Below, in pieces: positions 18,962 to 38,894 of a stretch of DNA of 64,000 nt. Where the stretch lies: contig OZ255836.1 in NCBI GenBank assembly GCA_965277715.1, positions 4,111,632 through 4,175,631 on the forward strand, written 5' to 3'. Positions within the stretch are counted from its first letter, which is position 1, and each line of letters begins with the position of its first letter. This DNA is from Gammaproteobacteria bacterium (GTDB lineage Bacteria; Pseudomonadota; Gammaproteobacteria; JBCCGL01). Under the pieces are notes generated by a model that did not search any database, was not told where the DNA came from, and was given only the letters and a program-made list of their open reading frames with translations. Position numbers and translations under genes: made by a program.

Positions 18962-20380
18962 TTGGATTTAACCATGATCACATCGGCTGGTATAGGCTCC
19001 GGGCTTGATATTGAAAATATAATAACGCAGCTGGTAACCGCTGAAGGTCAGCCTGCTGCGCAGAGATTGGATCGACGTGAAGCGGGATACCAGGCTGAAT
19101 TGTCTGGCTTGGGGCAAGTGAATTCAGCGCTCTCGCAATTTCGAACAAGTGTCACCACACTGCAAAATTTTGGCACTTCACAGCCGCGTGTGGCAACGGT
19201 GAGTGACAGCACTGTATTCACTGCATCAGCGACTGGCAGCGCGGTTTCTGCAAGTTACCAGATCCAGGTTAATGCGATTGCCGAAGCGCACCGTGTGAGC
19301 ACAGCAGGCGTCGCGACATCCAGTACCGCAACAGGCACTGGCACGCTGACAATCACCACCAACAGCAAATCGTTTAATGTGGTGGTCAATACCACTAATA
19401 ACACACTGGCCGGCATTCGCAGTGCCATTAATAGTGCTCAGGACAACACGGGTGTGAGTGCAACGATCGTCAATGTCGACAATGGTACGGGTGGTACGGA
19501 GAGTCGGCTGGTGTTAAGTGCGACTAACACGGGCACCCTGCACAACATCACCGTCTCAGCGGATGACGACGACAACAATGATACCGATACCTCGGGCTTA
19601 TCAATTATTTCCACGGCCAATTTGAGCGTGCTGAATGCGGCAGTCAATGCCAGTATTAGCATTGACGGGCAAACGGTTACCCGCGCTTCAAATACCATTA
19701 GTGATGCCATCGACGGGGTTTCATTGACGCTGCAAAAAGCCGATGTCGGCGTCAATAAAACCTTGACTGTCGGGCTTGATAAAGCGGCGGTCCGCACGGC
19801 TGTATCCACATTTGTCTCCACCTACAATTCGTTGCAGGGGACGTTAAACCAATTGACATTTTACAACGCCACCAATAACACCTCTGGGGCGTTGCTGGGG
19901 GATGCCACATTGCGTAATGTGAGGAACCAGATATCACAACAACTGAGCCAGACGGTGGCCGCTGTCAGCGGTACATTTAATAGCCTGCCCAGTATTGGCA
20001 TTGTTTCTGATGCCAGCGGCAACTTTCAACTGAATAACACCGTGTTCAACGCCGCGCTGGACAGCAACTTTAATGACATCAATACATTGTTTGCCGACGG
20101 CACAAATGGGATTGCCGTCAAACTGAGAACACTGCTCGATTCCTATCTTGGCAGCAGTGGCATCTTGCGAACACGCACCGATGGGTTACAAACCAGCATT
20201 AGCTCGATCAGCGATTCACGCCAACAACTGAGTGATCGATTGATACGTATTGAAGCGCGCTTTCGCACGGAGTTTACCGCGCTGGATACGCTGGTGGCCA
20301 ATTTCCAATCAACCGCAAATTTTCTTACGCAACAACTGGCGAACCTACCAGGGTTTACCCGTGCCCGTAATAACAGTTAA
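18962..20380 (+). CDS. fliD: flagellar filament cap protein FliD
   Basis: 472 aa with FliD N- and C-terminal coiled-coil regions and a central variable domain. Gene order is fliC-flaG-fliD-fliS. Confidence 0.8.
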   Translation: MDLTMITSAGIGSGLDIENIITQLVTAEGQPAAQRLDRREAGYQAELSGLGQVNSALSQFRTSVTTLQNFGTSQPRVATVSDSTVFTASATGSAVSASYQIQVNAIAEAHRVSTAGVATSSTATGTGTLTITTNSKSFNVVVNTTNNTLAGIRSAINSAQDNTGVSATIVNVDNGTGGTESRLVLSATNTGTLHNITVSADDDDNNDTDTSGLSIISTANLSVLNAAVNASISIDGQTVTRASNTISDAIDGVSLTLQKADVGVNKTLTVGLDKAAVRTAVSTFVSTYNSLQGTLNQLTFYNATNNTSGALLGDATLRNVRNQISQQLSQTVAAVSGTFNSLPSIGIVSDASGNFQLNNTVFNAALDSNFNDINTLFADGTNGIAVKLRTLLDSYLGSSGILRTRTDGLQTSISSISDSRQQLSDRLIRIEARFRTEFTALDTLVANFQSTANFLTQQLANLPGFTRARNNS

Positions 20381-21539: not shown

Positions 21540-22997
21540 ATGACCAAAAAAACACTAAAGAAAGTACTTGTAGTTGATATCGATACGGAGCGAACACGAT
21601 CACTGGCCACCTTGCTGAATTTTCTGGACTACAATGCCCAGGTACTCAGTAGCCCCGCACTCTTGCGCGAATTGACAGACCTGGCGGATTACGGCGCCCT
21701 GTTTCTCTATGAATCAAAGCAGGCACTGGCAATTGCTGCAGAGCTTGCCGAGAAATTGAGCCAGTGCCCGCCGTTGGTGCTGGTCGGTGATCACTTTGCC
21801 AATGAGCCGAGTGAAGGGGCACTGCCACCGGGGTTTATCGCCGCCATGAAAACGGACATCAAATACCCCGAGTTGAGCAATTTACTGCACCGTACTGAAC
21901 TCACCGCAAAACAACACAACAAAGACCTGCCACAATCGCTGGAGTTATTCCGCAGCCTGGTGGGCAACAGCCGCACTATCCGTCGTGTGCGCAAAATGAT
22001 CGAACAGGTTGCCAGTACTGAAGCCACTGTCTTGATTTTGGGTGAATCCGGCACGGGTAAAGAAGTGGTTGCGCGCAACATCCACTACTACTCAACACGC
22101 AGAAACAAACCGTTTGTACCCATCAACTGTGGCGCTATTCCCGGTGATCTGCTGGAAAGCGAACTGTTTGGCCATGAAAAGGGAGCGTTTACCGGCGCCT
22201 TGAGTGCCCGTCAGGGGCGTTTTGAACTGGCTGAAGGTGGCACTATCTTTCTCGATGAAATCGGGGATATGCCGTTGAACATGCAAGTCAAATTGTTACG
22301 GGTGATTCAGGAGCGCTCATTTGAGCGCGTTGGCAGCAACCGCAGCATCAAAACCAACGTGCGCATTATCGCGGCAACCCACCGTGACCTGGATGTATTG
22401 ATCGAGCAGGGACAATTCCGTGAAGATTTGTATTATCGACTCAATGTCTTCCCAATCGAAATGCCGGCAATGCGTGATCGACTCGAAGATCTGCCCTTGC
22501 TGGTCAACGAATTAATCACCCGGCTCGAACACGAAAAAAGTGGCTCGGTACGCCTGACGCCCGCCGCAATCGCCACCTTGTGCAACTACCGCTGGCCGGG
22601 CAATGTACGTGAGCTGGCCAACCTGATTGAACGGTTGGCGATTCTCTTCCCCTACGGTGTGGCGGATGTCAAAGACCTGCCCGCCAAAATAGTGCCAACG
22701 CAAACCAGTGGAGAACTTATCCCGCATGATGCAGTGGCGCTTGAGTATCCCGTCACTATGAGCTCAGGGGGCATGGCTAACCTGGAAATCCTCAGTAGTG
22801 AGCCACGCCTGCCGCGTGAGGGCATTGATCTAAAACAACACCTTACCGATATTGAAGTGAGCTTGATTAAGCAAGCCCTCGACGACACCGATTGGGTTGT
22901 CGCGCACTCGGCAAAGCGCCTGCGTATCCGGCGCACCACCCTGGTGGAAAAAATGCGCAAATACAATATCGTGCGGACTGAAGAGCTGTTGTTATAA
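21540..22997 (+). CDS. fleQ: sigma54-dependent flagellar master regulator (FleQ/FlrA-type enhancer-binding protein)
   Basis: It has an N-terminal FleQ/REC-like domain, an AAA+ sigma54-activation domain ([29 protein letters not shown]) and a C-terminal Fis-type HTH. It sits downstream of fliS-fliT, as fleQ does in Pseudomonas. Confidence 0.8.
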
Positions 22998-23768: not shown

Positions 23769-24359
23769 TCACTTTTTCATAAATTCAACAAACACTACAG
23801 CCGAGCCGTTGATAAGAATGCTTTCAACGTCGGATAAGGGTATTTCCGTATTTTCGCTATCAAGCCAGCTCGCCTCCCTGAGTAGAAAATGGCCGCTATG
23901 CGGTTCAGTTGGCCATTCTGAAGGCCAGCCGTATATTCTTCTACCATCATCCAGGTGCAATACAACATAGGTTATATTGTCGGCAAAGGCGCTAAACCAC
24001 TCGGACGCATAAGATGTTTCGCGGGTGATAGCGAGTTTTCTCATCAGCGCGTGAAACTTATCATTGTTTGCAAAATAAGCAAACACTAGACCCAATAGCA
24101 ATGATGTTATTAAGGCGCTGAGTAATTCGGTATTGGTATTCCATTCTATCCATCCGGGGTGTAGGCCCGTTACATTGGCCAGTGCTTTAAACAGAAACCC
24201 TAAACCCTGGATAATAATAGTAAATATGAGTGCTTGAACAACCCGTTCAAAATGGGATTGCTTGGGGTAGGAGGTAAAGGCATAAAAAATCCACGCGGTG
24301 ACGAAGCCGGGCAGCAGATATTGCAATAGTGATATAACACCGGTGTTGATTAAATCCAT
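23769..24359 (-). CDS. hypothetical membrane protein with about 3 N-terminal TM helices and a C-terminal soluble domain
   Basis: 196-aa ORF with hydrophobic helices (LLQYLLPGFVTAWIFYAF, VVQALIFTIIIQGLGFLF, LLSALITSLLLGLVFAYF). It lies in an AT-rich context, divergent from the CHAT gene. No recognisable motif. Confidence 0.4.
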   Translation of the reverse strand: MDLINTGVISLLQYLLPGFVTAWIFYAFTSYPKQSHFERVVQALIFTIIIQGLGFLFKALANVTGLHPGWIEWNTNTELLSALITSLLLGLVFAYFANNDKFHALMRKLAITRETSYASEWFSAFADNITYVVLHLDDGRRIYGWPSEWPTEPHSGHFLLREASWLDSENTEIPLSDVESILINGSAVVFVEFMKK

Positions 24360-24492: not shown

Positions 24493-25962
24493 ATGGAACA
24501 GCACAATATTTTGATACTCGGCGCCAGCCCCTGGAATCTTCACCGGGTTAGCCATGATGTAGAAATTCGTAATATACAAAAAGCCATAAAAAAAAGTAGT
24601 GGCGCAGATGCATTCTCTATCGAAACCAACTCCGCCGCGCAGTATCAGGATTTAGGCGAGGCGGTTTTGGCGCAGCAACCGCATATCCTGCATTTCTGTG
24701 GGCATGGCGGGGGTGATGTGGGGTTGGTTTTTGTGGATGAAGATAACAACGCCCAGCTCGCGGATAACACGGCTATGGAAAAACTCATCCGTATGCTGGG
24801 CAATCATGTGCGCTGTGTGTTTCTCAATGCCTGTTACAGTGAGGTGCAGGCAAAGTTACTAATTCCTCATGTCGACTATGTTATTGGCGTGCAGGGCACA
24901 GTGGGTGATGCCGACGCTCAGGCGTTTAGCACGGCATTTTATGAAAAACTGGGGGCTGGTTACCCGCTTACCTATGCTTTTGAGTTGGCCTACAACGACC
25001 ACTACCACGCCGAGCACTGTCGGCCAGTGTTGCTCAGCCGCAGTGAGCACCGCCTCTACCACAGTGATCTCGATACCCTCAATGAAATAAGCCAACGGTT
25101 GCAAACCGTCACCCCTGGTATTGCCCTCCTGGGCCAGGCGGGCCGTATCAGTGCTGCTTTGCCTCCAGCACTGCGAGCACGGATGCAGGGAACCTTTGGC
25201 CCTGAACGGGTATTAACACTTAGCCCCGTCAGTGACGACAAACAACAAGGTGCATTTTTTGCCCATCTCGCCGAGCAGGCGCAGTCTGATCAGGTCGACT
25301 TTAGCGGGTTAGCAACCGTCTTACAGCACCGGGTGGAAGACGGTAGCCTGCGCTGCCTGTTGCTAGGCCATTTGCAGCGCGGTAGCGCTGAAGAGTCCCG
25401 GCAACTGGCCGAGTTGTTGCGCAATTTATGTGAAGGGGGGCGGTTAAAGGTGGTGATTTACGGTGAGCGAAGACTGCGCGATTTAATGGTGCTTAACGGT
25501 GCGCTATCACCGCTGAATATGTTGGATTCACTCTACCTTGCCGAGTTGGGTGTAGAGGATGTTCTCAAGCTTGAGCCAGAGTTGAAGAGAGAAGAAGCCG
25601 AGGATTTGTTGGCGCTGTCTGGCGGGCACCCACGGCTGTTGCGTGAAGCGCTGTTTTGCTATCGCCAACAACCCAATCTGAATAAGGTAGCCGAGCAGTT
25701 GCAAACTGCGGTCGATGATATTGTCGATCAATGTCTTTGTGATTTTCGGGGGCAGGAGGATAGTATGGTGTTGTTAGCGGATTGCTTGCGTGAAGAACGG
25801 GCGGGTTACCGAGCAGACTTGATAGGTGATGAAGTGTTGGCGGCTTTATATTGGCATAACTTGCTGCGGCAGCAGGGGCATCAGTTGTACTGGCGTTGTA
25901 GTTTATTGCGTGAGACGGTGGAAGCAGTAGCGGCCAGCCTGGCCCGGCGGGCGGGGGTGTGA
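24493..25962 (+). CDS. CHAT-domain (caspase-like, clan CD) peptidase with a C-terminal alpha-helical domain of unknown function
   Basis: The N-terminal ~130 aa carry the CHAT/caspase His-Gly and Cys catalytic dyad in the canonical context (PHILHFCGHGGGD ... VRCVFLNACYSE). The remaining ~330 aa are Leu/Arg-rich and helical. There is no signal peptide. The stop at 25960-62 lies 1 nt before the next gene's GTG start. Confidence 0.7.
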   Translation: MEQHNILILGASPWNLHRVSHDVEIRNIQKAIKKSSGADAFSIETNSAAQYQDLGEAVLAQQPHILHFCGHGGGDVGLVFVDEDNNAQLADNTAMEKLIRMLGNHVRCVFLNACYSEVQAKLLIPHVDYVIGVQGTVGDADAQAFSTAFYEKLGAGYPLTYAFELAYNDHYHAEHCRPVLLSRSEHRLYHSDLDTLNEISQRLQTVTPGIALLGQAGRISAALPPALRARMQGTFGPERVLTLSPVSDDKQQGAFFAHLAEQAQSDQVDFSGLATVLQHRVEDGSLRCLLLGHLQRGSAEESRQLAELLRNLCEGGRLKVVIYGERRLRDLMVLNGALSPLNMLDSLYLAELGVEDVLKLEPELKREEAEDLLALSGGHPRLLREALFCYRQQPNLNKVAEQLQTAVDDIVDQCLCDFRGQEDSMVLLADCLREERAGYRADLIGDEVLAALYWHNLLRQQGHQLYWRCSLLRETVEAVAASLARRAGV

Positions 25963-25963
25963 T

Positions 25964-28900
25964 GTGCAGTTGAGACTTAGCGTGGCGTTACGCTACGGCT
26001 TACTATTGGGTTTGTGTGTGGGGTGGCTGCCGTTGGGGGTAGTGGCGGATGCTGTGCGACCGGCTTTGGTGCCTGCGGGTGAGCAGTTGGCTAGTGGTGA
26101 AGGGGCGTTGGATAGTTTGGCTCGGCGTTTGAATACACGCTTGGGCACTGTCCATCACGCGGCCTTCAGCCCGCAGGGAGATCGCATCGTTACGGCATCG
26201 AGTGATAACACTGCGCGGCTGTGGAATGCAGACAATGGCGAACTGATTGTGGTGCTTGAGGGGCATACGGATTGGGTTAATCACGCGGCTTTCAGCCCGC
26301 AGGGAGATCGAATCGTTACGGCATCGGATGATAATACTGCGCGGTTATGGAACGCAGACAATGGCGAACTGATTGCGGTGCTTGAGGGGCATACGGGCAG
26401 AGTTTATCACGCGGCCTTCAGCCCGCAGGGAGATCGCATCGTTACGGCATCGGGTGATGATACTGCGCGGCTGTGGAACGCAGACGATGGTGAACTGATC
26501 GATGTGCTTAAGGGGCATACGGATTGGGTTAATCACGCGGCTTTCAGTCCACAGGGAGATCGAATCGTTACGGCATCGGATGATAATACTGCGCGGTTAT
26601 GGAACGCAGACAATGGCGAACTGATTGCGGTGCTTGAGGGGCATACGGGCAGAGTTTATCACGCGGCCTTCAGCCCGCAGGGAGATCGCATCGTTACGGC
26701 ATCGGGTGATGATACTGCGCGGCTGTGGAACGCAGACGATGGTGAACTGATCGATGTGCTTAAGGGGCATACGGATTGGGTTAATCACGCGGCTTTCAGT
26801 CCACAGGGAGATCGAATCGTTACGGCATCGGATGATAATACTGCGCGGTTATGGAACGCAGACAATGGCGAACTGATTGCGGTGCTTGAGGGGCATACGG
26901 GCAGAGTTTATCACGCGGCCTTCAGCCCGCAGGGAGATCGCATCGTTACGGCATCGGGTGATGATACTGCGCGGCTGTGGAACGCAGACGATGGTGAACT
27001 GATCGATGTGCTTAAGGGGCATACGGATTGGGTTAATCACGCGGCTTTCAGTCCACAGGGAGATCGAATCGTTACGGCATCGGATGATAATACTGCGCGG
27101 TTATGGAACGCAGACAATGGCGAACTGATTGCGGTGCTTGAGGGGCATACGGGCAGAGTTTATCACGCGGCCTTCAGCCCGCAGGGAGATCGCATCGTTA
27201 CGGCGTCGAGAGATAACACTGCGCGGCTGTGGAACGCGGGCGATGGCGAACTGATCGCGGTGCTTGAGGGGCATACGGGCAGAGTTTATCACGCGGCTTT
27301 CAGCCCGCAGGGAGATCGCATCGTTACGGCATCGAGAGATAACACTGCGCGGCTGTGGAATGCAGACAATGGCGAACTGATTGTGGTGCTTGAGGGGCAT
27401 ACGAGTTGGGTTTATCACGCGGCCTTCAGCCCGCAGGGAGATCGCATCGTTACGGCATCGAGAGATAACACTGCGCGGCTGTGGAATGCAGACAATGGCG
27501 AACTGATTGTGGTGCTTGAGGGGCATAGGAATAGGTTTTATCACGCGGCCTTCAGCCCGCAGGGAGATCGCATCGTTACGGTATCGGGTGATGATACTGC
27601 GCGGCTGTGGAATGCAGACGATGGTGAACTGATCGATGTGCTTAAGGGGCATACGGATTGGGTTAATCACGCGGCTTTCAGTCCACAGGGAGATCGAATC
27701 GTTACGGCATCGGGAGATAACACTGCGCGGCTGTGGAATGCAGACAATGGCGAACTGATTGTGGTGCTTGAGGGGCATAGGAATAGGGTTTCTCACGCGG
27801 CCTTCAGCCCGCAGGGAGATCGCATCGTTACGGCATCGGGTGATGATACTGCGCGGCTGTGGAATGCAGACAATGGCGAACTGATTGCGGTGCTTGAGGG
27901 GCATAGGAATAGGGTTTCTCACGCGGCCTTCAGCCCGCAGGGAGATCGTATCGTTACGGCATCTAGGGGTAAGACTGTGCGGCTGTGGAGCGCAGACGAT
28001 GGCGAACTGATCGCGGTGTTTGAGGGGCATACGGATCGGGTTACTCACGCAGCCTTCAGCCCGCAGGGTAATCGCATTGTCACCGCCTCATTCGATGGCA
28101 GTATAAGACTATGGGACACAGATACAGCTAAACCGCTACGGCTTATGGTGGCCACCAGCAACGGCCAATGGCTAAACTGCCAGGCGAACGGCCATTGCTT
28201 ACGCCACGACGATGGCACATTGTTTTGGCCGCCTCTACCTCCCCAGGCCACAGGCGGTAAACTGAGCCTGGAAAATCTGCCCGAGGCGACAATCGACACC
28301 TGTATGTCGCTGCCTTGCGAGCCACGCGACTTTGTTGTCGGGATTCGCAATACCGGCACCGCGCCACTCTATTGGCTACAAGTGGTCTCGGCAGAAAGCG
28401 GCCCTGTCTCACTGTCATTACCCCCACCGCCGTTACCGCCATTGCACCCCGATGATCATGTTGAGCTAAGCATACGCCTGGCCAGCGTAGCACCCACACA
28501 GCAACCCCAGCGCCAAAACACCAGTATAAAATTGGCTATTCGCCACGCCCATGGCGAATTACCAATAGACCTGCCAGTAACCGTGCGCACCCCAGAGATT
28601 ACTCTGCTGGAAGCCAGCCTGACAGAAAACCGCGAAACCATCGCAGTGCAGGTGAGTAACCACGGCGGGGTTTCACTATCCCAGGCGGTTGCAGAGGCCG
28701 CCATCAATGGCCAGGCGATACCCGGTAGCCTTAACCTTCCAGTGCTTCCGGGCAATATGTCGAAACCACAACAATTGGCTTTTACGGCGCCCGCAGATTT
28801 TAACTACCCGGACGACACTGAGTTCACTTTGCAGTTGCGCAACGCCAACTACCCCCATTATCAGTGGACACTCAAACACCCGCTCACCCTGCCCTGGCAA

Positions 28901-30586
28901 CTCTATACCTTGCTGGCAGCACTGATTCTGGTGCTTGGCGGGCTGGCCTGGTTTGTCGGTGTGCGCTGGCATCCACTGGTGCGGCTGGCGGTTAATCAAG
29001 GCCCCACCGCGCTGGCACTGCCCCAGCTGGGCCAGGCGCGCCGCTGGCTGCAACGCGCCCGCCTGTGGCGGGATACCGTGCAGGCGCAAGGGCTGGCAGC
29101 GCGCTGGCAAAGCGCCGAGGCGTTTTTGGCCTGCCCTGACCCGGTGCAGCAAATCGAACAACTGGCCGGGCGTTTACAGGCCGAGGTGTTGCCCGCGAAT
29201 GAGGCTACCCCCACCTGGCTGGCCACCTTGCGTCTTAACGAAGGCTTTATCCTGCGCTTACCACAGTGCACGGTGGCGCTGCCCGGCGCCGATCATTCTA
29301 TCGACCAGATCACCACTCAGCTACGCCGTTGCGAAGGTGTATGCCTGCTAATCACCACAGACCCGGATCAACAGGCCGCGCTGCGCGCCGACCGCCAGGC
29401 CACCTGGGTGATACCGGACAACCAGGCTTTGGTGCGCCTATGGCTGGCAGCGGCGGATAAGGTTAACGATCAACTGGCCTCTATTATCGCCGAGCAGGTC
29501 GATACCCGTAGCCTTTCGCCCTGGCGCACTGGTCACGGTATGGAGGATATGACGATGTTTTTTGGCCGCGACCAGTTACTGCGCGATATCCTCGAACGAC
29601 CACCGCGTAACTACCTGCTGGTTGGGGCGCGGCAGCTGGGTAAAACCAGTCTGCTGCAAAAACTGCAACATCTCTGCGATCAGCGCGATACATTGCGTGG
29701 CTTTAAAATCTCGCTGGGCTCCGGCCATTTTGCCATCGATTTGCAACGCATCGCTGGGCAGTTGGCGTTGGCGCGCAACGCCTCTTTGCCAGACATTCTC
29801 ACTGCGTTGGCGCACCCGCCCGCCGGGATCCATCACTGGTTGTTAGTCGACGAGGCCGACGAGCTGGCGGGCAACCACACCCCGGAAAATGCAGCGGTTT
29901 TAGATCAAATGCGCAACCTGAGCGCCGAGGGCCGCTGTCATTTTATCCTCGCCGGGTTTTGGGGCCTGTACCGTGAGGCGATACTGGAGTACCAATCAAA
30001 ACTGAAAAACTTTGGTGACCTGCTGCTGTTGGATGCTCTGGAAGACAAGGCCAGCCGGGCGCTACTCACCCGGCCTATGCACGCCTTGCAGATTCACTAC
30101 CAGGATGACACCCTGGTAACGCGGATTCTGCACGAGACCGGCGGGCGCACTAATTTGCTGGCTATTGTCGCCGATGACCTGGTGCGCCGACTTGGCAATC
30201 AACGCCGGGTGATTACCGATGAAGATATCAGCGAAGTGCTAAACGATGCGGTGTTTCAGGATCGCCTGCTCGACTGGAAAACACTATCAGGGAATATACT
30301 AGATCAAATACTGGTATACGCTAGTATCGACCTCAACCCACTAGAGCAGGGTTTTACCGAGGCTGAATTATGGCAACGGTTGGATGAATTGGGAGACGAA
30401 GTATCCGATGATGCCGTACAAAATTCGCTGATTCGTTTACGGCTGGGATTTATCATCAAACGCGTTGGTGGACGTTACTACTATCGCGTGCCCGTGCAAG
30501 TACAGCAAATCCTCGACAGCGAACCGGAGCGTGCCTTGCGTAGATTGCTCAATTCTTTAGTCGGTGATATATCGAAACAATGTTGA
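25964..30586 (+). CDS. giant multidomain protein: signal peptide or anchor, then about 16 WD40 repeats, beta-rich linker domains, a single TM helix, then a cytoplasmic STAND/AAA_16-like P-loop NTPase with a C-terminal winged-helix
   Basis: N-terminal hydrophobic leader (LRYGLLLGLCVGWLPLGVVA). 16 units of a 42-aa WD40-like blade (HAAFSPQGDRIVTASxDNTARLWNADxGELIAVLEGHTxxV). A TM helix (LYTLLAALILVLGGLAWFVGVRW, nt ~28897-28970). Then FFGRDQLLRDILERPPRNYLLVGARQLGKTSLL, which is the FxGR-x(n)-GxxxxGKT/S pattern typical of STAND/AAA_16 ATPases. Walker B HHWLLVDEADEL. C-terminal wH-like RLRLGFIIKRVGGRYYYRVP. GTG start coupled to the CHAT gene. Confidence 0.75.
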   Translation: MQLRLSVALRYGLLLGLCVGWLPLGVVADAVRPALVPAGEQLASGEGALDSLARRLNTRLGTVHHAAFSPQGDRIVTASSDNTARLWNADNGELIVVLEGHTDWVNHAAFSPQGDRIVTASDDNTARLWNADNGELIAVLEGHTGRVYHAAFSPQGDRIVTASGDDTARLWNADDGELIDVLKGHTDWVNHAAFSPQGDRIVTASDDNTARLWNADNGELIAVLEGHTGRVYHAAFSPQGDRIVTASGDDTARLWNADDGELIDVLKGHTDWVNHAAFSPQGDRIVTASDDNTARLWNADNGELIAVLEGHTGRVYHAAFSPQGDRIVTASGDDTARLWNADDGELIDVLKGHTDWVNHAAFSPQGDRIVTASDDNTARLWNADNGELIAVLEGHTGRVYHAAFSPQGDRIVTASRDNTARLWNAGDGELIAVLEGHTGRVYHAAFSPQGDRIVTASRDNTARLWNADNGELIVVLEGHTSWVYHAAFSPQGDRIVTASRDNTARLWNADNGELIVVLEGHRNRFYHAAFSPQGDRIVTVSGDDTARLWNADDGELIDVLKGHTDWVNHAAFSPQGDRIVTASGDNTARLWNADNGELIVVLEGHRNRVSHAAFSPQGDRIVTASGDDTARLWNADNGELIAVLEGHRNRVSHAAFSPQGDRIVTASRGKTVRLWSADDGELIAVFEGHTDRVTHAAFSPQGNRIVTASFDGSIRLWDTDTAKPLRLMVATSNGQWLNCQANGHCLRHDDGTLFWPPLPPQATGGKLSLENLPEATIDTCMSLPCEPRDFVVGIRNTGTAPLYWLQVVSAESGPVSLSLPPPPLPPLHPDDHVELSIRLASVAPTQQPQRQNTSIKLAIRHAHGELPIDLPVTVRTPEITLLEASLTENRETIAVQVSNHGGVSLSQAVAEAAINGQAIPGSLNLPVLPGNMSKPQQLAFTAPADFNYPDDTEFTLQLRNANYPHYQWTLKHPLTLPWQLYTLLAALILVLGGLAWFVGVRWHPLVRLAVNQGPTALALPQLGQARRWLQRARLWRDTVQAQGLAARWQSAEAFLACPDPVQQIEQLAGRLQAEVLPANEATPTWLATLRLNEGFILRLPQCTVALPGADHSIDQITTQLRRCEGVCLLITTDPDQQAALRADRQATWVIPDNQALVRLWLAAADKVNDQLASIIAEQVDTRSLSPWRTGHGMEDMTMFFGRDQLLRDILERPPRNYLLVGARQLGKTSLLQKLQHLCDQRDTLRGFKISLGSGHFAIDLQRIAGQLALARNASLPDILTALAHPPAGIHHWLLVDEADELAGNHTPENAAVLDQMRNLSAEGRCHFILAGFWGLYREAILEYQSKLKNFGDLLLLDALEDKASRALLTRPMHALQIHYQDDTLVTRILHETGGRTNLLAIVADDLVRRLGNQRRVITDEDISEVLNDAVFQDRLLDWKTLSGNILDQILVYASIDLNPLEQGFTEAELWQRLDELGDEVSDDAVQNSLIRLRLGFIIKRVGGRYYYRVPVQVQQILDSEPERALRRLLNSLVGDISKQC
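26140..28120 (+). repeat. intragenic tandem DNA repeats (126-bp WD40 unit; 252-bp super-unit) with near-100% nucleotide identity
   Basis: At least three perfect 252-bp copies lie between about 26280 and 27100. The minus-strand ORFs 26345-26536, 26597-26788 and 26849-27040 have identical translations at exact 252-bp spacing. About 10 further, slightly diverged 126-bp units follow. Confidence 0.9.
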
Positions 30587-30708
30587 GGAGCGCATAACGG
30601 TAGACTGTAAGCGCCCTTAAATCAGCCTCTATTCCAAGGTAATGTCCAAAACGACATTCCAAGGTAGCAAGGCCTCTATCTTTTCAAGGAAAAAAAAAGA
30701 AAAAAAAA

Positions 30709-30806
30709 GGGGTCAAGGCAGTTATTTCCTATATTTCTTGCTGGAAATCACTGTTTTTATCCGTATTAGTCGTTGTATGGTGAATAATAAGCCTGACCCC
30801 CTTGCT
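30709..30806. mobile_element. MITE-like ~95-bp repeat element, copy 1 (short GGGGTCA terminal inverted repeats)
   Basis: AAAAAGGGGTCAAGGCAGTTATTTCCTATATTTCTTGCTGGAAA(T/C)CACTGTTTTTATCCGTATTAGTCGTTGTATGGTGAATAATAAGCCTGACCCCCTTGCTTTT. It recurs almost identically at 34784 and 37611. Its ends are inverted (GGGGTCAAG ... CCTGACCCC). Confidence 0.55.
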
Positions 30807-31187
30807 TTTAGGCTACGCAAAATTAGCCACAGCAGAAATACAATACCAGCGAGCTGGATGGTTATACCGAGAACAGCATTCATAAGGGGTTTCTCCAGAT
30901 TACGCCGGGGGAACCTCCTTCCCTGCCGGGAAGAAAAACCCCGGCAGGGTGGTTAAAACAAAATAAAAACAAAAAATAATGGGCTGCTTCTTTTGAGAGA
31001 CCAGCTATCTCTTAGGGCATACCTATCGGCAACGCCCTGACACTGACCGGGGTCAGCAATAAGTAGAAACCAAGATAGCGTGTCCTGCTAGAACGGGCAG
31101 TGAAGAAGATGGCAGTTTTTAACACCTATCGCACCGCCACAAAAATACACTGGTACTACCCTGATATTTTTATCTGGTGGCAATGTT

Positions 31188-31772
31188 ATGGCATCTAAAA
31201 CCCCCTATTCTCGTCCAACCTTTGAACAATCTTTTACGCTGCACAGCCTTCAGGCCCAGCGGGTGGTGCAACGGGTGCTGAGGCGTACCGTACACGCCTT
31301 ATACGGCATTGAAGTAATTTTACGGATTATTGGGGATGAAAAAGCCATTGACGAAGTGGACGGCATTATCCGGGACGCGGTAACTCATGCCGCCAGCGAA
31401 CTGGAGCAGGAACAAAGCCGACTGAATCTTTTAATGGAAGAAAACGGCATTGATGAGACGCCAAACTATACCCACCCGTACACCTTTACGGCCAAAATCA
31501 GTTCGCCGCAAATCGGTCAGTTTATAGGACTGATACGCAAACTGGATGCCGTGATGATTGCCCGTGATACGCTTTGGTTAACCGGGGTTATCAGCAATCA
31601 ACAGAGGGCAGATGGGAATTTTGATGGGCAGCAAAAACTTACCCTGCTGGCACGGCATATTATTGATATTGAAACGCGAGCAAGGCAATCGGCGAATAGC
31701 CAAGGTAAGCAGGAAGAAGTGGAGGCGGTGGTGCCGGTGATGGAGGAAGTACTGGAAGCTGAAGAAGATTGA
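31188..31772 (+). CDS. hypothetical protein (island-encoded)
   Basis: 194-aa ORF in the AT-rich island. It has an acidic C-terminus (EEVEAVVPVMEEVLEAEED). No motif I can name with confidence. Confidence 0.35.
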   Translation: MASKTPYSRPTFEQSFTLHSLQAQRVVQRVLRRTVHALYGIEVILRIIGDEKAIDEVDGIIRDAVTHAASELEQEQSRLNLLMEENGIDETPNYTHPYTFTAKISSPQIGQFIGLIRKLDAVMIARDTLWLTGVISNQQRADGNFDGQQKLTLLARHIIDIETRARQSANSQGKQEEVEAVVPVMEEVLEAEED

Positions 31773-31937
31773 GAAGATTAAATAACCACCAACTAAAGTC
31801 GGTAAGTCCAATATTGGCTAAGCCGCCATCAGACTTCACATGTCCAATTAACTATCCAGTGGTTGACCTGCATTACCGGAAGGGACTCTCATCTATTGGA
31901 GATTTTGACTTGATTGCATACCCATTTATTTGATCGA

Positions 31938-33122
31938 TTATTCAGCGGTACAGCTAATCGTTTTGTTAGTCCACGGAGCACCATTCCAAGAATCTTCGAC
32001 TCCTGGAGAAACTCGGCTTAATAGTTCATCAGATACTTCGCCGTCTCCACCACATTGCTCAAAACTAGTCTGCACACCATGTACGAATAGGCTTGCAGAA
32101 TCTCCACAAAGCACTGGCTTATCAATTGATGTCAGCACTGAGCTAGAGAGAAGTACTAACCTGTACACAGGGTTCAGATAGGCATCGAAACCTGGAATGA
32201 TATACTGTCCAGCTGGCAATTGAGCAAAGCGTCGAAAACCGGTAAGGGTTTGAAACGCTATCATGTCAGAAGCAGCCCGCTGTGCAAATGTTTCTAATAC
32301 ACCGTCATCCTCCCAATCTGTAATTGGGTTTGAATGAAGCGCTTCGACTTGACGGGCAGCACATCTGTCCGCATTGATTTCATTCGGGTTTGGATTGGAT
32401 GCACAAAACAAATCGTTCGAGGTTTGGAGAGCCAGGATGTGTTGAAACAAGCCAGACGTTTCCATACGCGACTTTGTGCTTACGGGGCACTTTTCGTTGT
32501 TAATGTGATACGTCTCATGACCCACCAGTGAGGCCAGATTGAACGCCATTATGCGATTTTGAATAACTGCTATTCTGCGTAGATTAGCTGAAACATTGTT
32601 CTGCTCAATGCCTTGAAATTGATTGTCAATGAACGTGCGAAGTGGCTCTTGCATCGCCGCAACGTTATCTGCATGAACGGTCTCGTCTGCATATCCGAAC
32701 GCCAGTTTGACAGGACGGTCAAACGCAATTCGAAATGACTCATAGTCTGGGTAAGCGCCTTGAACAAATTGTATTGCATACCAGCTTGCTACCATGTTCA
32801 TTCGCTGGAAGGCTGATTGGCGACAGAACATCTTCCCAGGTATTGCTGCGCAAACTGTATCAGGCATGCTGTCATTGCAAACTGCTCTTCGGATTTTCAA
32901 ATCCAGTTTTTCACTACCACCTTTTAGAATCGAAGTTAATTGAATCATACTTATGTGTTGCCAATTCGACCCGCCAAATGTTTCCTCGTGACAGATTGAA
33001 AGTTCAATCTCTGCATTTACCCGTTGAACTGACAATATTTGCACAATCGCAACAAAAAGCAGAATTGCTCTTGAGCTAATCATTTCAGTGCACCAATTAA
33101 TGTGTCGAGTACCCCCTCGCAA
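31938..33122 (-). CDS. hypothetical secreted protein with an HExxH zinc-metallopeptidase-like motif
   Basis: 394 aa. N-terminal signal peptide (ILLFVAIVQILSVQRVNA). HETYH motif (LASLVGHETYHINNEKC). Low GC. Confidence 0.35.
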   Translation of the reverse strand: MRGGTRHINWCTEMISSRAILLFVAIVQILSVQRVNAEIELSICHEETFGGSNWQHISMIQLTSILKGGSEKLDLKIRRAVCNDSMPDTVCAAIPGKMFCRQSAFQRMNMVASWYAIQFVQGAYPDYESFRIAFDRPVKLAFGYADETVHADNVAAMQEPLRTFIDNQFQGIEQNNVSANLRRIAVIQNRIMAFNLASLVGHETYHINNEKCPVSTKSRMETSGLFQHILALQTSNDLFCASNPNPNEINADRCAARQVEALHSNPITDWEDDGVLETFAQRAASDMIAFQTLTGFRRFAQLPAGQYIIPGFDAYLNPVYRLVLLSSSVLTSIDKPVLCGDSASLFVHGVQTSFEQCGGDGEVSDELLSRVSPGVEDSWNGAPWTNKTISCTAE

Positions 33123-33451
33123 TTACCAACATGTATCTGGACGGCGCTTGTCAGCCCCTGTAAGTCTTGATTTGGCAATTGGCTTAAGCTTTTTGTTCGT
33201 TTTAAGCTGGTCAGACAGTTTTCAACCGGGCCGACTTGTAAGCTTGCCAATTTGCTTACTCTTTCTCCACCTGGAGGAAATGCAACAGCAAGAGTCACCC
33301 CAGCAGTTAAAAACGCCGATAGAATTGTCCATACATAGGTTCGCTTCTTCCACTTGTCCTCAAGGGCCAGCTTCAGTTTCTCCAACTCAAATTTGGCATT
33401 TTCTAAGTCAGGTTGATTGTCCATCAGCTTAAGGTTCTTAGGTCTGACCAC
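33080..33451 (-). CDS. hypothetical small membrane-anchored protein
   Basis: 123 aa with an N-terminal coiled/charged region and then one TM helix (VWTILSAFLTAGVTLAVAF). It overlaps the neighbouring genes in an operon-like arrangement. Confidence 0.3.
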   Translation of the reverse strand: MVRPKNLKLMDNQPDLENAKFELEKLKLALEDKWKKRTYVWTILSAFLTAGVTLAVAFPPGGERVSKLASLQVGPVENCLTSLKRTKSLSQLPNQDLQGLTSAVQIHVGNCEGVLDTLIGALK

Positions 33452-33983
33452 ATTTTAGTGCCGCATCCAGGTTATCCTGCAAACCTGCTATATCCCAGGT
33501 TTCCAGCAAATCTCTAATAAGAGTAGGATCAAGCTCTGTGCCATCTTTTTTTAGGTAATACACCGACGTACGAGCACGTTCACGATTGATATCCACCTTA
33601 TAAGTTAATTCAAAAACTCCTTCGATATTATCACCGGTTGCGTGAAAAAAAATACTGCCAAGGGTTTTCTCGCGCCTCGGCAAAACCAAACCCTTCAAAT
33701 TCGTCCAGGCCACAAAAACGCTTTCTATTTTGTCTGTACAGTCAGCCAACTTTGGGATAAAACGGTTTTGAAAATAGGATGTCTGATCAAAGCCACCGCC
33801 GATACCTGGATCTTCAGGATCAGGTGCTGCGTCCAGTGATGAGACCGCCCCGATACTTGTCAACGCAGTTTTTGAGGTATTATCAGCAAGTGCAAGACCT
33901 ACATTGGCAAGTAAGCTGATAGTCAACACGACCAGAAGACAAGGAATGTTCAACATAGATATTTTTTCAATTCGTTTGAACAA
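33438..33983 (-). CDS. hypothetical secreted protein
   Basis: 181 aa with a signal peptide (MLNIPCLLVVLTISLLANVGLALA). First gene of a three-gene minus-strand cluster. Confidence 0.35.
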   Translation of the reverse strand: MFKRIEKISMLNIPCLLVVLTISLLANVGLALADNTSKTALTSIGAVSSLDAAPDPEDPGIGGGFDQTSYFQNRFIPKLADCTDKIESVFVAWTNLKGLVLPRREKTLGSIFFHATGDNIEGVFELTYKVDINRERARTSVYYLKKDGTELDPTLIRDLLETWDIAGLQDNLDAALKCGQT

Positions 33984-34369
33984 CTAATTATAACTTAACT
34001 ATTTTGTTTCTGTAGGCCCAAATTATTAACATGTGTTGTAAAAACCAAAGTTCGGTAGACGGTAAGTATACAGTTGTATTTAACCCTAATTCTTAGATAG
34101 GAACGTTTAAAGGTTATTGGGAAATGCTTTAATGGCCTGTGACGATTTGGTTTGCTATATTGTGTATAAATATACTTTTAGCTTTGCTATACCATCAAAA
34201 TTAAATTGTTTACTCAACAATATGGTTCCCGATGTGCTCGTACTTCAGGTGTGGCTGACCAAGCATGGAAAAATAAATATGCAAAGAGTTTACAGCAACA
34301 AGTGATTGTTTTCATTCAATTACGAGGCGAGCCATATGTTAATCATTTGCGTTTTGAAGGCTGAAAGTT

Positions 34370-35105
34370 GTGACTGATTTCTTGTTTAAGCACAGCACCA
34401 CGGTTGGCCAGCCCGGCTATTTTTTGCATGGTTTGTTATTAGACGGAAACCCCACATTCAGTGAAGGCGTGTACAGGCTTAACCATTGGGCCGTGCGCTT
34501 AGGCCGCGATGCGCATTCAGATGAAGCCCGCATGGCTTCTTTGCACGAAATGTATCATGCGACATTGAACGACAGTACTGCATACGGAACGTTAATGCAT
34601 GTGGTGGGATTATTTTGCCGCACCTATCCAGAAGAGAACCAATGGCCGAATCTTTTGCAGGCGCTTATCGACTCAGCGTTGCGCTGCCATGAAACCTATG
34701 CAACCTACGCGTCTGTATTTGTTGTTGGTAAAGGCTCGCCGAACAGAGCTGTGCTCGAACAGTATCCTGAAAGTCATTAAAAGGGGTCAAGACAGTTATT
34801 TCCTATATTTCTTGCTGGAAACCACTGTTTTTATCCGTATTAGTCGTTGTATGGTGAATAATAAGCCTGACCCCCTTGCTTTTCAAATTATGCGGGCGCA
34901 TGCGAATCTCACTGGTGCAGATGCTGATGGTTGGCTGACATCTCGTCAGGTTGCTGGATATCATCATGACGTATTTGCAACATATGGATTACCTGCCAGG
35001 ACTTTTGGTGGAACGCCAATAACAAGCGCTTTGTGGGAGTCAAACATTAATTTTGGAGGTTTTTTGGGCTACCGATATTGGTGTGATGGATGTGCTTCTC
35101 AATGA
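34370..35105 (+). pseudogene. hypothetical HExxH-motif gene disrupted by a MITE insertion
   Basis: The ORF 34370-34780 (contains LHEMYHATLND) stops exactly at the MITE border. The reading frame resumes after the element in a different frame (34884-35105: QIMRAHANLTGADADGW...). A ~97-bp insertion accounts for the +1 frame change. Confidence 0.45.
34784..34878. mobile_element. MITE-like ~95-bp repeat element, copy 2 (inserted in a coding sequence)
   Basis: Near-identical to copies 1 and 3 (GGGGTCAAGACAGTTATTTCC ... AAGCCTGACCCCCTTGC). Confidence 0.55.
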
Positions 35106-35806
35106 ATGGGCGTAGTTTACTGATTAGTTGTTTTTTTGTATTGCTTACAGCTATTTCGGTTGGCACGTATGCTTTTGACGTAGAAGAAATGAAACTGACA
35201 CTTGGTGAGCACCAATTAAGTATTCCAAAAAGCAATATTATTGATCCCAATGTACCGTTCTGGCTGCGTTTAATTCCGGGTTTAGCTCCCAGCACTGGAG
35301 AGATTCTGCTCTTGATAGATGCAGAAGATATTGCTAATCAGGTCGAGGGGTATCAAGCGTATGATGGCGAGTTAAAAAACAATATACATTTGCGTATATC
35401 AGTGCTTGATGTGAACGCGTTAAATCAAATTTTAGACCCTCAAATGCATGTCTATAGCGATGCTTGGTATGGGCGGGGATTATTGGAAGGTCGTACTATA
35501 GAGCTGCATGAGAAGTCTAGATTTTATAAGCTGTACAGAGGAGATGACACATTTTGGACAGCTGTAAAAATTTCACCTGATGCTTCTCAGCCTATACCTG
35601 ACGATCCTTTTGCTTTTTGGGTTGCAAGTTGTCATAAAGGAGAAGCTCCATTGACGAAATCAGGCTTTATAACAAGTTGTCTCACCAAGATGGTATATGA
35701 CAATCTTCTTTTGGATTTTAGTTTAAATGGAATAAATTTAGGTGTAGTAGATGGTGTGAAGACTATGCTGTCTCGCCAGCTTTTATTATGGAAAAATCAG
35801 AAATAA
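35090..35806 (+). CDS. hypothetical secreted protein
   Basis: 238-aa ORF with an N-terminal signal sequence (LLISCFFVLLTAISVGTYA). AT-rich codon usage. No known motif. Confidence 0.35.
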   Translation: MCFSMNGRSLLISCFFVLLTAISVGTYAFDVEEMKLTLGEHQLSIPKSNIIDPNVPFWLRLIPGLAPSTGEILLLIDAEDIANQVEGYQAYDGELKNNIHLRISVLDVNALNQILDPQMHVYSDAWYGRGLLEGRTIELHEKSRFYKLYRGDDTFWTAVKISPDASQPIPDDPFAFWVASCHKGEAPLTKSGFITSCLTKMVYDNLLLDFSLNGINLGVVDGVKTMLSRQLLLWKNQK

Positions 35807-36042
35807 AAATAAACATTTAGTTGAATGTCAAAACTGAGTTCAAAATCCCTAGCGGCTTGCTAGGGCTTTTTTGCTTTTACTCTTCGCTAGTCAACACCAA
35901 ACACCCGTCCATCACTCTGACCTTCACTGGCGAATCAATCTCAAATCCCGCTTTGATTAACCAATGGCCTTTGAGGTGAATCTCGCCAATGGGTGTGCGC
36001 TGTCGGCAGTTCTGGCTGAAATAAAAGGAAAAGGGGTCAGGC

Positions 36043-37611
36043 TAGAATGGCACTTCCTTAAGCTCTAAGTACATGAAAAATATGGAAGTACTTTCATTGT
36101 AAATGACCTATTTCTGTTTTTTGGGATGGCCATATTTTTTAACAACACTTCTGGCCACGTCCCTTGGCTGCATCAATAAAGGATACGGTTTGGGTCTTCG
36201 TTTAACCACTCTTGGTTCAATACGCCCCGGTCGATTACCCACACAGTTTTCTGCAATCAACGCACATAGCGCCAACACCTTATCACTACCCAGAGGGCTA
36301 CCGCCTTTCTGATAACGATACGTTACCCAAATTTGTAACGTATGCTTAAAACTTATCTGTCGAGGCAGTATGTCCACTAGTAAGGCAGATTGCGCCATTA
36401 ATAAGCGAATAAGGTTGTAAGCTAATATGTGTACCCACATTTCCTTCTCAACCATTTCTGGCGTCTTACAACGGAAAGTGTGCATCTTCATTGTCGTTTT
36501 TATATGGCGTAAATCAAGTTCGACATGCCAGCGTTCTTTGTAGAGCTGTTTAAGCGCCTCTTTAGACGCCGATTTAACTGATAACAACGTTGTCACCAAC
36601 AGTTTTTTACCCACTTTCAGTTCACGTATAACCACTTCATCAGCAGCCGCTTCATAGGCTTCTTCGCTCATCCACTCTGGTCTCTTCTTGGGCTTTGTAT
36701 AACAAATCAGATGATCCTTCGATCCAAGCCTTTTGCCTTCTCGAAAATCTGTGGATTTACGCCGCGCACCATGCGGCTCAAATACACCGTCTACTCCTTG
36801 CTCTATAAGGTTTGCTAGAAAAAAATAACCCGCAAAATAGGCATCACCCACCACAATATCACCCGGTTTAAGCGCATTTTGTATTTTTCTCAATAACGTT
36901 TGCTCATCCGCTCCCTTACCTTTAAAAGGACCCATTGCCGCATCGAGAACACCACCACTGGCTAAACAAATAATTCCTACCCAGCGACAAAGAGGAAAAC
37001 CGATCCCCACTTGCTGGCCTGACTGTTGCGGATAAACTACCTGATTTTCAGGCGTATCGGGCATTGTCACAGTGGTGCCGTCAACCAATTTAACTGAACG
37101 CCCTTGCCAGTGCCAGTGACTGGCCGCTTCATTCGCCACACACTCGCCTGTACAACGGGCAAGCCCTGAGACGAGGGGGGTTGGCAGCCTTTGTCGCGCT
37201 TTACAATAACTCCCTGTATACGTATTACTCACTGATAAACCTTCACTTAATCGCTGTACAGCGAGTGTGTTGACAGCTTGTTGGCAGGACTGATCTGCAC
37301 TCATTGTTTGGTATAAAAACAGCGATAAGGTATCTAGAGGAGGATAGCGACGCGCTCGAAAATCCGGTTGTAATTCTTCCAGTTTCGTAAGTAACTGAGA
37401 GGATGTCAGCAAGTGATAAAAACTCAATGCATCCGAGGATTGAGCTCGGCTTTTGATGCGACGTTGAAGAATGTTGACTTTTACATTACTCTGCATGATG
37501 GCTGGTTCCTGTGGGATAAAGGGTATTTGTGTTGGCAACAAATAACCTACCATAGAACCAGCTTTTTTTGTAATTACTTCAAATACTTACAGCTTAAGGA
37601 AGTGCCATTCG
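36043..37611 (-). mobile_element. IS4-family insertion sequence (~1.57 kb) with ~20-bp terminal inverted repeats
   Basis: Left end GAATGGCACTTCCTTAAGCTCT (36043-) and right end AGCTTAAGGAAGTGCCATTC (-37611) are reverse complements of each other. The element encloses a single transposase gene. Confidence 0.7.
36108..37553 (-). CDS. IS4-family DDE transposase
   Basis: 481 aa colinear with IS4-type transposases (…DGTTVTMPDTPEN…, …LLRKIQNALKPGDIVVGDAYFAGY…, …YKERWHVELDLRHIKTTMKMH…LIRLLM…). Confidence 0.85.
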   Translation of the reverse strand: MVGYLLPTQIPFIPQEPAIMQSNVKVNILQRRIKSRAQSSDALSFYHLLTSSQLLTKLEELQPDFRARRYPPLDTLSLFLYQTMSADQSCQQAVNTLAVQRLSEGLSVSNTYTGSYCKARQRLPTPLVSGLARCTGECVANEAASHWHWQGRSVKLVDGTTVTMPDTPENQVVYPQQSGQQVGIGFPLCRWVGIICLASGGVLDAAMGPFKGKGADEQTLLRKIQNALKPGDIVVGDAYFAGYFFLANLIEQGVDGVFEPHGARRKSTDFREGKRLGSKDHLICYTKPKKRPEWMSEEAYEAAADEVVIRELKVGKKLLVTTLLSVKSASKEALKQLYKERWHVELDLRHIKTTMKMHTFRCKTPEMVEKEMWVHILAYNLIRLLMAQSALLVDILPRQISFKHTLQIWVTYRYQKGGSPLGSDKVLALCALIAENCVGNRPGRIEPRVVKRRPKPYPLLMQPRDVARSVVKKYGHPKKQK

Positions 37612-37706
37612 GGTCAAGGCAGTTATTTCCTATATTTCTTGCTGGAAACCACTGTTTTTATCCGTATTAGTCGTTGTATGGTGAATAATAAGCCTGACCC
37701 TCTTGC
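37611..37706. mobile_element. MITE-like ~95-bp repeat element, copy 3, abutting the IS4 right end
   Basis: GGGTCAAGGCAGTTATTTCCTATATTTCTTGCTGGAAACCACTG ... AAGCCTGACCCTCTTGC. It is followed by the short CCTCCCTTG x3 repeat. Confidence 0.55.
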
Positions 37707-37782
37707 CTCCCTTGCCTCCCTTGCTTTCTAATAGTAATCTCCAAAGTGCACACGGTGATAATCGGACTACACGCAGAGGAGG

Positions 37783-38864: not shown

Positions 38865-38894
38865 CCTAATCGTGTTGTAATTAACAGTTTTTGA

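Follow-up and report, generated by a model that had tools for sequence, protein, structure and literature searches.

What does an ATPase do at the end of a long protein that begins with an array of WD40 repeats? The question is raised by a gene for 1540 amino acids (aa) that the open reading frame (ORF) listing places at positions 25964..30586 (+) of a 64,000-nucleotide (nt) stretch of DNA, the window, from a member of the Gammaproteobacteria (GTDB lineage JBCCGL01; assembly GCA_965277715.1, contig OZ255836.1, positions 4,111,632 to 4,175,631). Its product, here called the receptor, is composed in order of a signal peptide, 16 WD40 blades, a cysteine-containing stalk, a transmembrane (TM) helix, a restriction-endonuclease-like (REase-like) domain, a nucleoside triphosphatase (NTPase), a lid and a winged helix. 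It is predicted to be a single-pass membrane protein (or one with a signal peptide or first TM helix plus a second), and the region flagged by an earlier reading made from the letters alone, the sequence-only reading, is its cytoplasmic signaling half. In fold and class, that half is very probably a switch-type ATPase, with a nucleotide-binding domain, a lid and a winged helix, at the boundary between STAND and ORC/Cdc6 proteins.

Evidence for an ATPase of this type comes first from its motifs. The P-loop NTPase core (aa 1198-1357; 29555..30034, +) was recognized by Pfam, motifs, homologue alignment, AlphaFold2 (AF2) modeling and Foldseek. It opens with the FxGR motif MFFGRDQLLRDILE (aa 1198-1211, with FFGRD at aa 1199-1203), followed by the Walker A motif LLVGARQLGKTSLL (aa 1218-1231; nt 29615-29656), where GARQLGKT supplies K1227, and the Walker B motif HHWLLVDEADEL (aa 1290-1301; nt 29831-29866), where LLVDEAD supplies D1296 and E1297. 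The core also holds beta4, HFILAGFW, and an SxLKNFG loop ahead of beta5. The sequence-only reading had named the FxGR, Walker A and Walker B motifs and a C-terminal wing, now placed at RLGFIIKRVGGRYYYRVP (aa 1493-1510); all four are present between aa 1198 and 1510 and conserved in alignments of 25 and 65 homologues. FFGR, Walker A and Walker B are invariant in both alignments, as are D1296, E1297 and D1299 in that of 25 homologues, while the alignments and the AF2 model place a retained basic residue in SP[IL][RK]NFG directly before beta5 (K1348 in the receptor), a candidate for the trans-acting finger of AAA+ proteins. Among Pfam families, nSTAND1 (PF20703) matches with 38.5 bits against a cut-off of 27.1 (E 1.4e-9), covering only positions 10-233 of the 379 in the profile, and AAA_22 matches with 27.4 bits against 27; neither PF01637 (ATPase_2) nor a Cdc6/ORC model is among the receptor matches at E<=0.1. 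NCBIfam gave no match for the C-terminal module of the receptor or for the partner protein described below.

A PDB sequence-profile search with the alignment of the cytoplasmic modules gave no match at E<=1, so structural relationships had to come from fold comparison. The AF2 model of aa 1003-1540, built on an alignment of the relatives from a first homology search, has a pLDDT of 89.8 and a pTM of 0.83, and consists of a five-stranded ASCE core, a helical lid, a winged helix of the helix-helix-beta-hairpin type and a terminal helix. The lid, an ARC1-like bundle, spans aa 1361-1455 (30044..30328, +) according to AF2 secondary structure and the alignments. The winged helix proposed by the sequence-only reading is found at aa 1466-1518 and, with the C-terminal helix, takes up 30359..30583 (+); its elements are listed for the model as H464-473, H480-492, E496-499 and E502-505. 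The fold search which that reading had recommended for residues ~1000-1540 returned 2qen (E 5e-10) and 2fna (E 2.5e-9) at the top of the Foldseek comparison against PDB, then Orc1/Cdc6, RuvB, ORC4, RFC and TnsC, with an NLR resistosome at rank 21. Fold-comparison figures were 21.0 for 2qen, with 298 residues aligned including the winged helix, 18.6 for 2fna, 18.1 for the wheat NB-ARC resistosome 9h2l, 16.1 for the TIR-NLR WRR4A (9qlv), 16.0 for CED-4 (2a5y), 14.4 for Cdc6/ORC and 13.3 for Avs5. The module thus shares the NBD-HD-WHD fold of NB-ARC and CED-4, and equally the core, lid and C-terminal winged helix of ORC/Cdc6-type and PF01637-type AAA+ proteins. Of the classes first proposed, STAND-like and ORC/Cdc6-like are upheld by nSTAND1, AAA_22 and Foldseek, and AAA_16 is not, its match lying under the Pfam cut-off.

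According to Leipe, Koonin and Aravind in 2004, STAND proteins are reportedly recognized by an hhGR[ED] motif with Walker A, Walker B of the form hhhhD[DE], a GxP motif, a winged helix, fusion to repeat sensors (WD40, TPR or LRR) and effectors, and action as a nucleotide-dependent oligomerization switch. The receptor has Walker A after an hhGR[ED]-type motif, the hhhhD[DE] form of Walker B and the winged helix, and it lacks GxP. A sensor is fused in the same polypeptide, in the form of the WD40 repeats, but N-terminally and across the membrane, and the effector is on the partner protein. The same results bear on the idea of a mechanical AAA+ motor or transport ATPase (ABC-like, secretion or unfoldase), by which the WD40 surface protein would be exported or assembled. 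Placement among ABC or other transporter ATPases is what the sequence-only reading had said would count against it; there is no ABC signature (LSGGQ), and no ABC or transporter ATPase is among the matches listed (Pfam, Foldseek), so that objection falls away. The best matches are switch or initiator ATPases of three domains with a winged helix (2qen, 2fna, NB-ARC, CED-4, Cdc6), FFGR followed by the order NTPase, lid and winged helix is that of STAND and ORC proteins and not of unfoldases, and the conserved partner is an effector with a pseudo-ATPase and not a transport component. A motor or transporter is therefore essentially excluded.

Further evidence came from the family to which the receptor belongs. 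The first homology search with the receptor module found 26 relatives, the nearest ~40% identical and none above 41%. Scanning the GTDB species representatives brought up 239 loci, 80 of which were fetched, and an exhaustive profile search of 1.84 billion representatives found 879 proteins (50% identity clusters) at E<=1e-30. The GTDB loci fall chiefly in Thiomargarita, Parabeggiatoa, Thiothrix and Chromatiaceae, with others in Pseudomonas, Stenotrophomonas, Xanthomonas and Undibacterium; large, multicellular or filamentous sulfur bacteria are enriched among the hosts. The annotation of the named homologues that were seen goes no further than “hypothetical” or “ATP-binding protein.” In 57 of 59 genomic homologues, Walker A follows a TM helix at a distance of 230-256 aa, and in 120 of 132 full-length metagenomic representatives at 237-282 aa. 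Together, the invariance of the motifs, the spacing of the TM helix, the Pfam score and the confident AF2 model are far beyond chance. The region N-terminal of the TM helix is variable, with WD40 propellers in 28 of 57 loci. Members of the Pseudomonas and Stenotrophomonas type have a ~120-aa domain between two TM helices; in this short-ectodomain subfamily (~720-745 aa: TM1, a ~120-aa periplasmic domain, TM2), the hosts are Pseudomonas, Stenotrophomonas, Undibacterium, Rhodoferax, Acidovorax and Lysobacter (loci L044, L059, L061, L062, L064, L075-L077, L079 and L080). A cysteine pair is conserved in the periplasmic domain of the two homologues that were read, from Stenotrophomonas (P0010) and Xanthomonas (P0013). 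Homologues share one plan: a signal peptide or TM1, a variable ectodomain, the TM helix some 250 aa from Walker A, the dead REase-like domain, the NTPase and the winged helix. What is constant across the family is the set of cytoplasmic modules, while the ectodomain and the effector domain of the partner are freely exchanged between loci.

The predicted topology of the receptor rests on hydropathy, which finds two hydrophobic segments only, at aa 5-31 and aa 978-1002. The first corresponds to an N-terminal signal peptide or anchor (aa ~1-28; 25964..26089, +), where homologues have clear signal peptides, and RPALVPAGEQL (aa 32-42) follows just after it, its counterpart in homologues being PPLVPEGEQL. 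The second, WQLYTLLAALILVLGGLAWFVGVRW (28895..28969, +), is the TM helix that the sequence-only reading had claimed, and its conserved place relative to Walker A bears that claim out. The start given for the module, 28897, falls two bases inside codon 978, the in-frame start being 28898, and every motif named for the module is nonetheless there. Arginine residues are concentrated just past this segment, and the C-terminal module is therefore predicted to be cytoplasmic. Correspondingly, export of the sensor has been argued from the signal peptides and PPLVPEGEQL of WD40-type members and from the conserved cysteine pairs in their stalks.

The predicted exported part consists mainly of sixteen 42-aa WD40 repeats (aa 65-736; 26156..28171, +), recognized by Pfam WD40 and beta-propeller families, Tandem Repeats Finder (TRF) and a repeat table. 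TRF describes a tandem array of 126 bp in 15.3 copies with 87% DNA identity (window 26154-28077). The first 14 repeats differ almost only at repeat positions 16, 18, 27, 32, 35, 38-40 and 42, and the last two are more degenerate. In the fungal NLRs HET-E and HNWD, the WD repeats are highly conserved and hypervariable at particular positions, and the array seems to resemble them. It is also the source of a strong local GC skew, 0.239 at 26-28 kb. An array of this kind is liable to mis-assembly or copy-number error in short-read data. Between the array and the membrane lies a membrane-proximal ectodomain (aa 739-977; 28178..28894, +) with the cysteine pairs CQANGHC and CMSLPC, for which Pfam and PDB sequence searches gave no match; C-x5-6-C..DDGTL is kept in the ectodomains of homologues. 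Three long antisense ORFs of up to 315 aa run within the receptor gene (27101-28048, 28045-28359 and 28676-29161, all on the minus strand); most likely they are not genes but artefacts that arise from the repeats and the GC content.

On the other side of the membrane, the stretch of ~200 aa that leads from the TM helix to the P-loop, described at first as having no recognizable motif, forms a conserved and confidently folded domain. This juxtamembrane domain (aa 1003-1182; 28970..29509, +) reaches a pLDDT of 92.5 when modeled alone by AF2, with a helical bundle in its N-terminal part and then a small alpha/beta domain whose similarity to the PD-(D/E)xK restriction endonuclease core covers aa ~1070-1180. 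A receiver-like fold, the guess of the sequence-only reading, was rejected for aa 1003-1195, where the flavodoxin-like (beta-alpha)5 fold with a phospho-acceptor aspartate was not found and the REase-like fold was found instead. The alignment of 65 sequences has no conserved Asp, Glu or Lys position of the catalytic D...(D/E)xK type. A reading as an active nuclease was ruled out on this ground, and the domain, a nuclease-like fold without its conserved catalytic residues, is presumably inactive. It is followed by a flexible linker, SPWRTGHGM (aa 1185-1193; 29516..29542, +), of low pLDDT, with little or no variation at S, P and G among homologues. The family consensus of the linker, RISPYQTxGGV, sits just before FFGR and is among the best-conserved cytoplasmic stretches, the receptor version being divergent; it might contact a nucleotide base, serve for docking or be cleaved.

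These domains raise the possibility that sensing is cytoplasmic, with the dead REase-like domain and the winged helix binding invading nucleic acid on the inner side of the membrane and the ectodomain merely anchoring or localizing the protein. The PD-(D/E)xK fold is a DNA-binding scaffold, the closest ATPase relatives include the DNA-binding Orc1/Cdc6 with its winged helix, and inactive STAND modules have been proposed as nucleic-acid receptors (Kaur et al., PMC8195603). Against this, it is the ectodomain that varies in the family and is diversified by repeats, as would be expected of a sensor under diversifying pressure, while the cytoplasmic domains stay constant. Moreover, neither the wing nor the REase-like domain has conserved basic residues among the 65 sequences, their conserved positions being mostly hydrophobic. 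Since the domains in question are both invariant and devoid of conserved basic residues, cytoplasmic sensing of nucleic acid is weakened, and we regard it as quite improbable.

An indication of what the receptor may act upon came from the gene directly upstream. The partner gene (24493..25962, +) encodes 489 aa, with an N-terminal CHAT/caspase-like protease and a constant module at aa ~195-489, assigned by Pfam, motifs and hhalign. The receptor GTG start is the first nucleotide but one past the partner TGA stop, leaving a gap of 1 nt, and a GGGGG Shine-Dalgarno-like run lies ahead of it at 25953-25957; the two genes are translationally coupled. The CHAT domain scores 36.4 bits against a Pfam cut-off of 24, and the motifs of its His/Cys dyad are intact (HFCGHG, aa 67-72; LNACYS, aa 111-116). 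Comparison by hhalign of the constant module with the receptor NTPase, lid and winged helix gave a probability of 94.9% and an E-value of 4.6e-8 over 245 co-linear columns; the same comparison with untrimmed alignments gave 51% and 1.5e-4. The correspondence can be followed motif by motif: LLIDEAD of the receptor is LFLLVSRFE in the partner, the DExD box being replaced by VSRFE-like residues; LRsLSEEGRCHFILAGFW is LRsLxExxxLHxxLCGGE; SPxxNFGE is SLLNxAE; GxRANL is GGHPxL; and the wing Y.Y.VPLF is RLxWRCE. Unlike the receptor, which has GGRTNL, the partner keeps GGHP at aa 377. Neither GK[ST] nor DE remains in the constant module. The module being homologous to that of the receptor and lacking both, the partner is an effector joined to a paralogue of the receptor ATPase that has been inactivated.

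This pairing is a property of the family. In 55 of the 59 loci with enough upstream DNA, neighbor clustering and a six-frame scan with hidden Markov models placed a partner homologue ahead of the receptor gene and on its strand, 34 of them adjacent and 21 with stop-to-stop segments that overlap or lie a few kb off; L008, L029, L035 and L042 have none. In L001, L002, L005, L006, L011 and L017, 1.1-1.8 kb separate partner and receptor, and an extra unclustered gene may be inserted there. Neighbor clustering brought out no further conserved gene, whether MoxR, vWA or a substrate for the protease such as Pepco. The conserved part of the partner is its C-terminal ~290 aa, not CHAT, and the N-terminal domain varies: among 36 partners it is TIR in 16, a weak XRE-type helix-turn-helix (HTH) below the Pfam cut-off in 8, CHAT in 3, an alpha/beta-hydrolase in 2 and SEFIR in 2. 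Of seven partners from short-ectodomain loci that were scanned singly, five have a weak, sub-threshold XRE-type HTH and two have no match. In one metagenomic homologue, P0027 (1993 aa), a signal peptide, DPLLPEGE and WD40 repeats are combined with a TM helix (about aa 893-927) and with two NTPase modules in tandem, where Walker A is at aa 1143 and aa 1675. It may be a covalently fused form of the ATPase-ATPase pairing proposed here.

The arrangement of receptor and partner led to the proposal of a mechanism that follows the logic of apoptosomes and resistosomes. A ligand on the extracytoplasmic sensor, here the WD40 propellers, would rearrange the TM helix and the juxtamembrane domain, and this rearrangement would free the NTPase from an ADP-locked state closed by the winged helix. 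ATP binding would then drive oligomerization, in which the pseudo-ATPase modules of the partner would co-assemble with those of the receptor. The effector domains clustered in this way, CHAT here and TIR in most relatives, would be switched on by induced proximity. The output would be proteolysis, most likely as an abortive, defensive or non-self response. As a whole, we consider this sequence of extracytoplasmic sensing, ATP-dependent hetero-oligomerization and effector activation reasonably probable. A bolder version, which we put forward only tentatively, is a bacterial hybrid of death receptor and apoptosome, in which the exported array of 16 near-identical WD40 blades, variable at a few positions in each repeat, would be an extracellular receptor for non-self (phage, competitor or kin), the dead nuclease-like domain would pass its signal across the membrane, and the ATP-driven STAND-like switch with its pseudo-ATPase adaptor would fire a caspase-like protease or, in relatives, a TIR NADase. 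The NLR and STAND immune switches of bacteria, plants and animals are known to sense inside the cell. To our knowledge, extracellular sensing by an NLR-like receptor has been shown for no described prokaryotic STAND system.

Several observations tell against this proposal. In the lid, the STAND GxP motif is absent, with GGRTNL in its place (family consensus GxRANL), and all 25 homologues match AAA_22 while nSTAND1 is reached at E<=0.01 by 11 of them only; on these two grounds, membership in nSTAND1 is peripheral. The structural matches do not part STAND cleanly from AAA+ proteins of the ORC/Cdc6 and PF01637 types. Export of a 16-blade WD40 array would be unusual, and is a prediction of sequence-based topology analysis. 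Hetero-oligomerization, ligand sensing and the effector substrate are all inferred. The window has no recognized defence-island neighbors, with flagellar genes upstream and low-GC DNA and an insertion sequence (IS) downstream, and PADLOC gave only generic CHAT models for the partner and an insignificant P-loop match to PDC-S01, with nothing beyond CHAT for either protein, so that the pair is no catalogued defence system. Finally, the 8 partners in 36 that carry a weak, sub-threshold XRE-type HTH in place of a toxic effector suggest that at least part of the family serves transcriptional signaling and not suicide or defence.

The last of these points leads to a different account of the pair, as ordinary transmembrane signaling and not a conflict system. 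The receptor would sense an envelope or environmental cue, and its ATPase switch would govern a partner with a regulatory output, through HTH domains in many relatives and limited CHAT proteolysis of a regulator here, and not through cell suicide or defence against phage. Such an output would agree with the weak XRE-type HTH partners in short-ectodomain loci of Pseudomonas, Stenotrophomonas, Undibacterium and Rhodoferax, with the lack of a PADLOC defence-system match and with a locus that has flagellar regulatory genes (FleQ, FliD, flagellin) for neighbors. Transcription is also what some STAND proteins regulate, MalT and AfsR among them, which favors it as well. However, most partners carry TIR (16/36) and others CHAT, SEFIR or alpha/beta-hydrolase domains, which are typical effectors of conflict systems (PMC7159879, PMC8195603), and all HTH matches lie under the Pfam cut-off. 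Near-identical WD40 repeats that vary at a few positions are typical of diversifying sensors, and the enrichment of the family in multicellular or filamentous sulfur bacteria likewise speaks for conflict. A purely regulatory role is thus unlikely, if less so than cytoplasmic sensing.

The flagellar cluster upstream of the pair comprises a Maf glycosyltransferase (14401-16365, -), flagellin (16765-18231), FliD (18962-20380) and a FleQ-type sigma-54 activator (21540-22997). The partner gene is separated from this cluster by the gene for a DUF6338 membrane protein (23769-24359, -). Directly past the receptor stop, GC falls from about 0.56-0.59 to 0.41-0.47 (window 30600-40000). Two ORFs follow, 30642-30956 (+) and 31188-31772 (+), which have no family match and are not recognizable as protease substrates of the Pepco or EACC1 type; the first (104 aa) is basic, of low complexity and looks non-coding, and the second (194 aa) has an acidic C-terminus. 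The low-GC stretch contains further ORFs without a family match at 31938-33122 (-), 33438-33983 (-), 34599-35105 (+) and 35090-35806 (+), and an IS4-type DDE transposase at 36108-37553 (-). Possibly, this stretch is an island that was inserted next to the gene pair.

How does the proposed two-gene receptor compare with known systems? The nSTAND1 proteins were described as a novel clade of STAND NTPases in bacterial conflict systems (Kaur et al. 2021, PMC8195603). The receptor scores above their gathering cut-off, and both have caspase or TIR effectors, repeat sensors and a presence in multicellular bacteria. The nSTAND1 proteins described, however, are soluble, with an N-terminal effector or EAD, a central NTPase and a C-terminal sensor, whereas the order is reversed in the receptor, with an N-terminal exported sensor and then a TM helix with a dead REase-like domain; the effector is fused to a pseudo-ATPase in a protein of its own. 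The closest structural matches, 2qen (PABY2304) and 2fna (SSO1545), are soluble archaeal Walker-type ATPases of ~350 aa, 15-17% identical in sequence to the receptor module, without a TM helix, an ectodomain, a REase-like domain or a partner. In comparison with NB-ARC, CED-4 and Apaf-1, the sensor is N-terminal to the NTPase and across the membrane, GGRTNL stands for GxP, and the protease is joined through a pseudo-ATPase paralogue, not through CARD or Death-fold adaptors. Orc1/Cdc6 ranks below the PF01637-type and NB-ARC matches, and the receptor differs from it in being membrane-anchored and having no replication context.

The closest parallel to the pairing itself is nSTAND2, a predicted two-gene pair of an active and an inactive STAND protein, together with the iSTAND proteins, which carry an N-terminal TIR or caspase domain (PMC8195603, PMC7159879). 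They share with the present system the pairing of an active NTPase with an eroded paralogue, on which a variable effector sits. The difference is that nSTAND2 effectors are GT4 or HEPN and the proteins soluble, while iSTAND needs a MoxR-vWA pair, which is not conserved here; an exported sensor or a TM helix so arranged is found in neither. Membrane-anchored STAND switches that read periplasmic or intramembrane signals have some precedent, since a role in periplasmic sensing has been proposed for bNACHT proteins with TM segments (10.1101/2022.07.19.500537) and “transmembrane STAND ATPases” have been mentioned in passing as protease-linked sensors (10.1101/2025.11.14.688446). Those proteins belong to the NACHT clade and have several C-terminal or inserted TM segments, or are fused to proteases, whereas the present family is non-NACHT, its one TM helix precedes the NTPase, its exported ectodomain is large and its effector is a separate subunit. 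Literature searches gave passing mentions only, and no description was found of an exported N-terminal sensor combined with a single TM helix, a dead REase domain, a non-NACHT NTPase and a split effector and pseudo-ATPase.

If the proposed mechanism is true, ATP-switch logic would be joined across the membrane to an extracytoplasmic sensor, with the effector split off onto a pseudo-ATPase adaptor. The family is not rare: with 879 clusters and 239 loci, this membrane-spanning form of the STAND/NLR-like two-gene systems is widespread, although it has gone essentially without annotation. Its members with short ectodomains, in Pseudomonas and Stenotrophomonas that can be cultured, make it tractable for the study of transmembrane STAND-like activation, of ATPase paralogues as adaptors and of a dead nuclease as a transducer.

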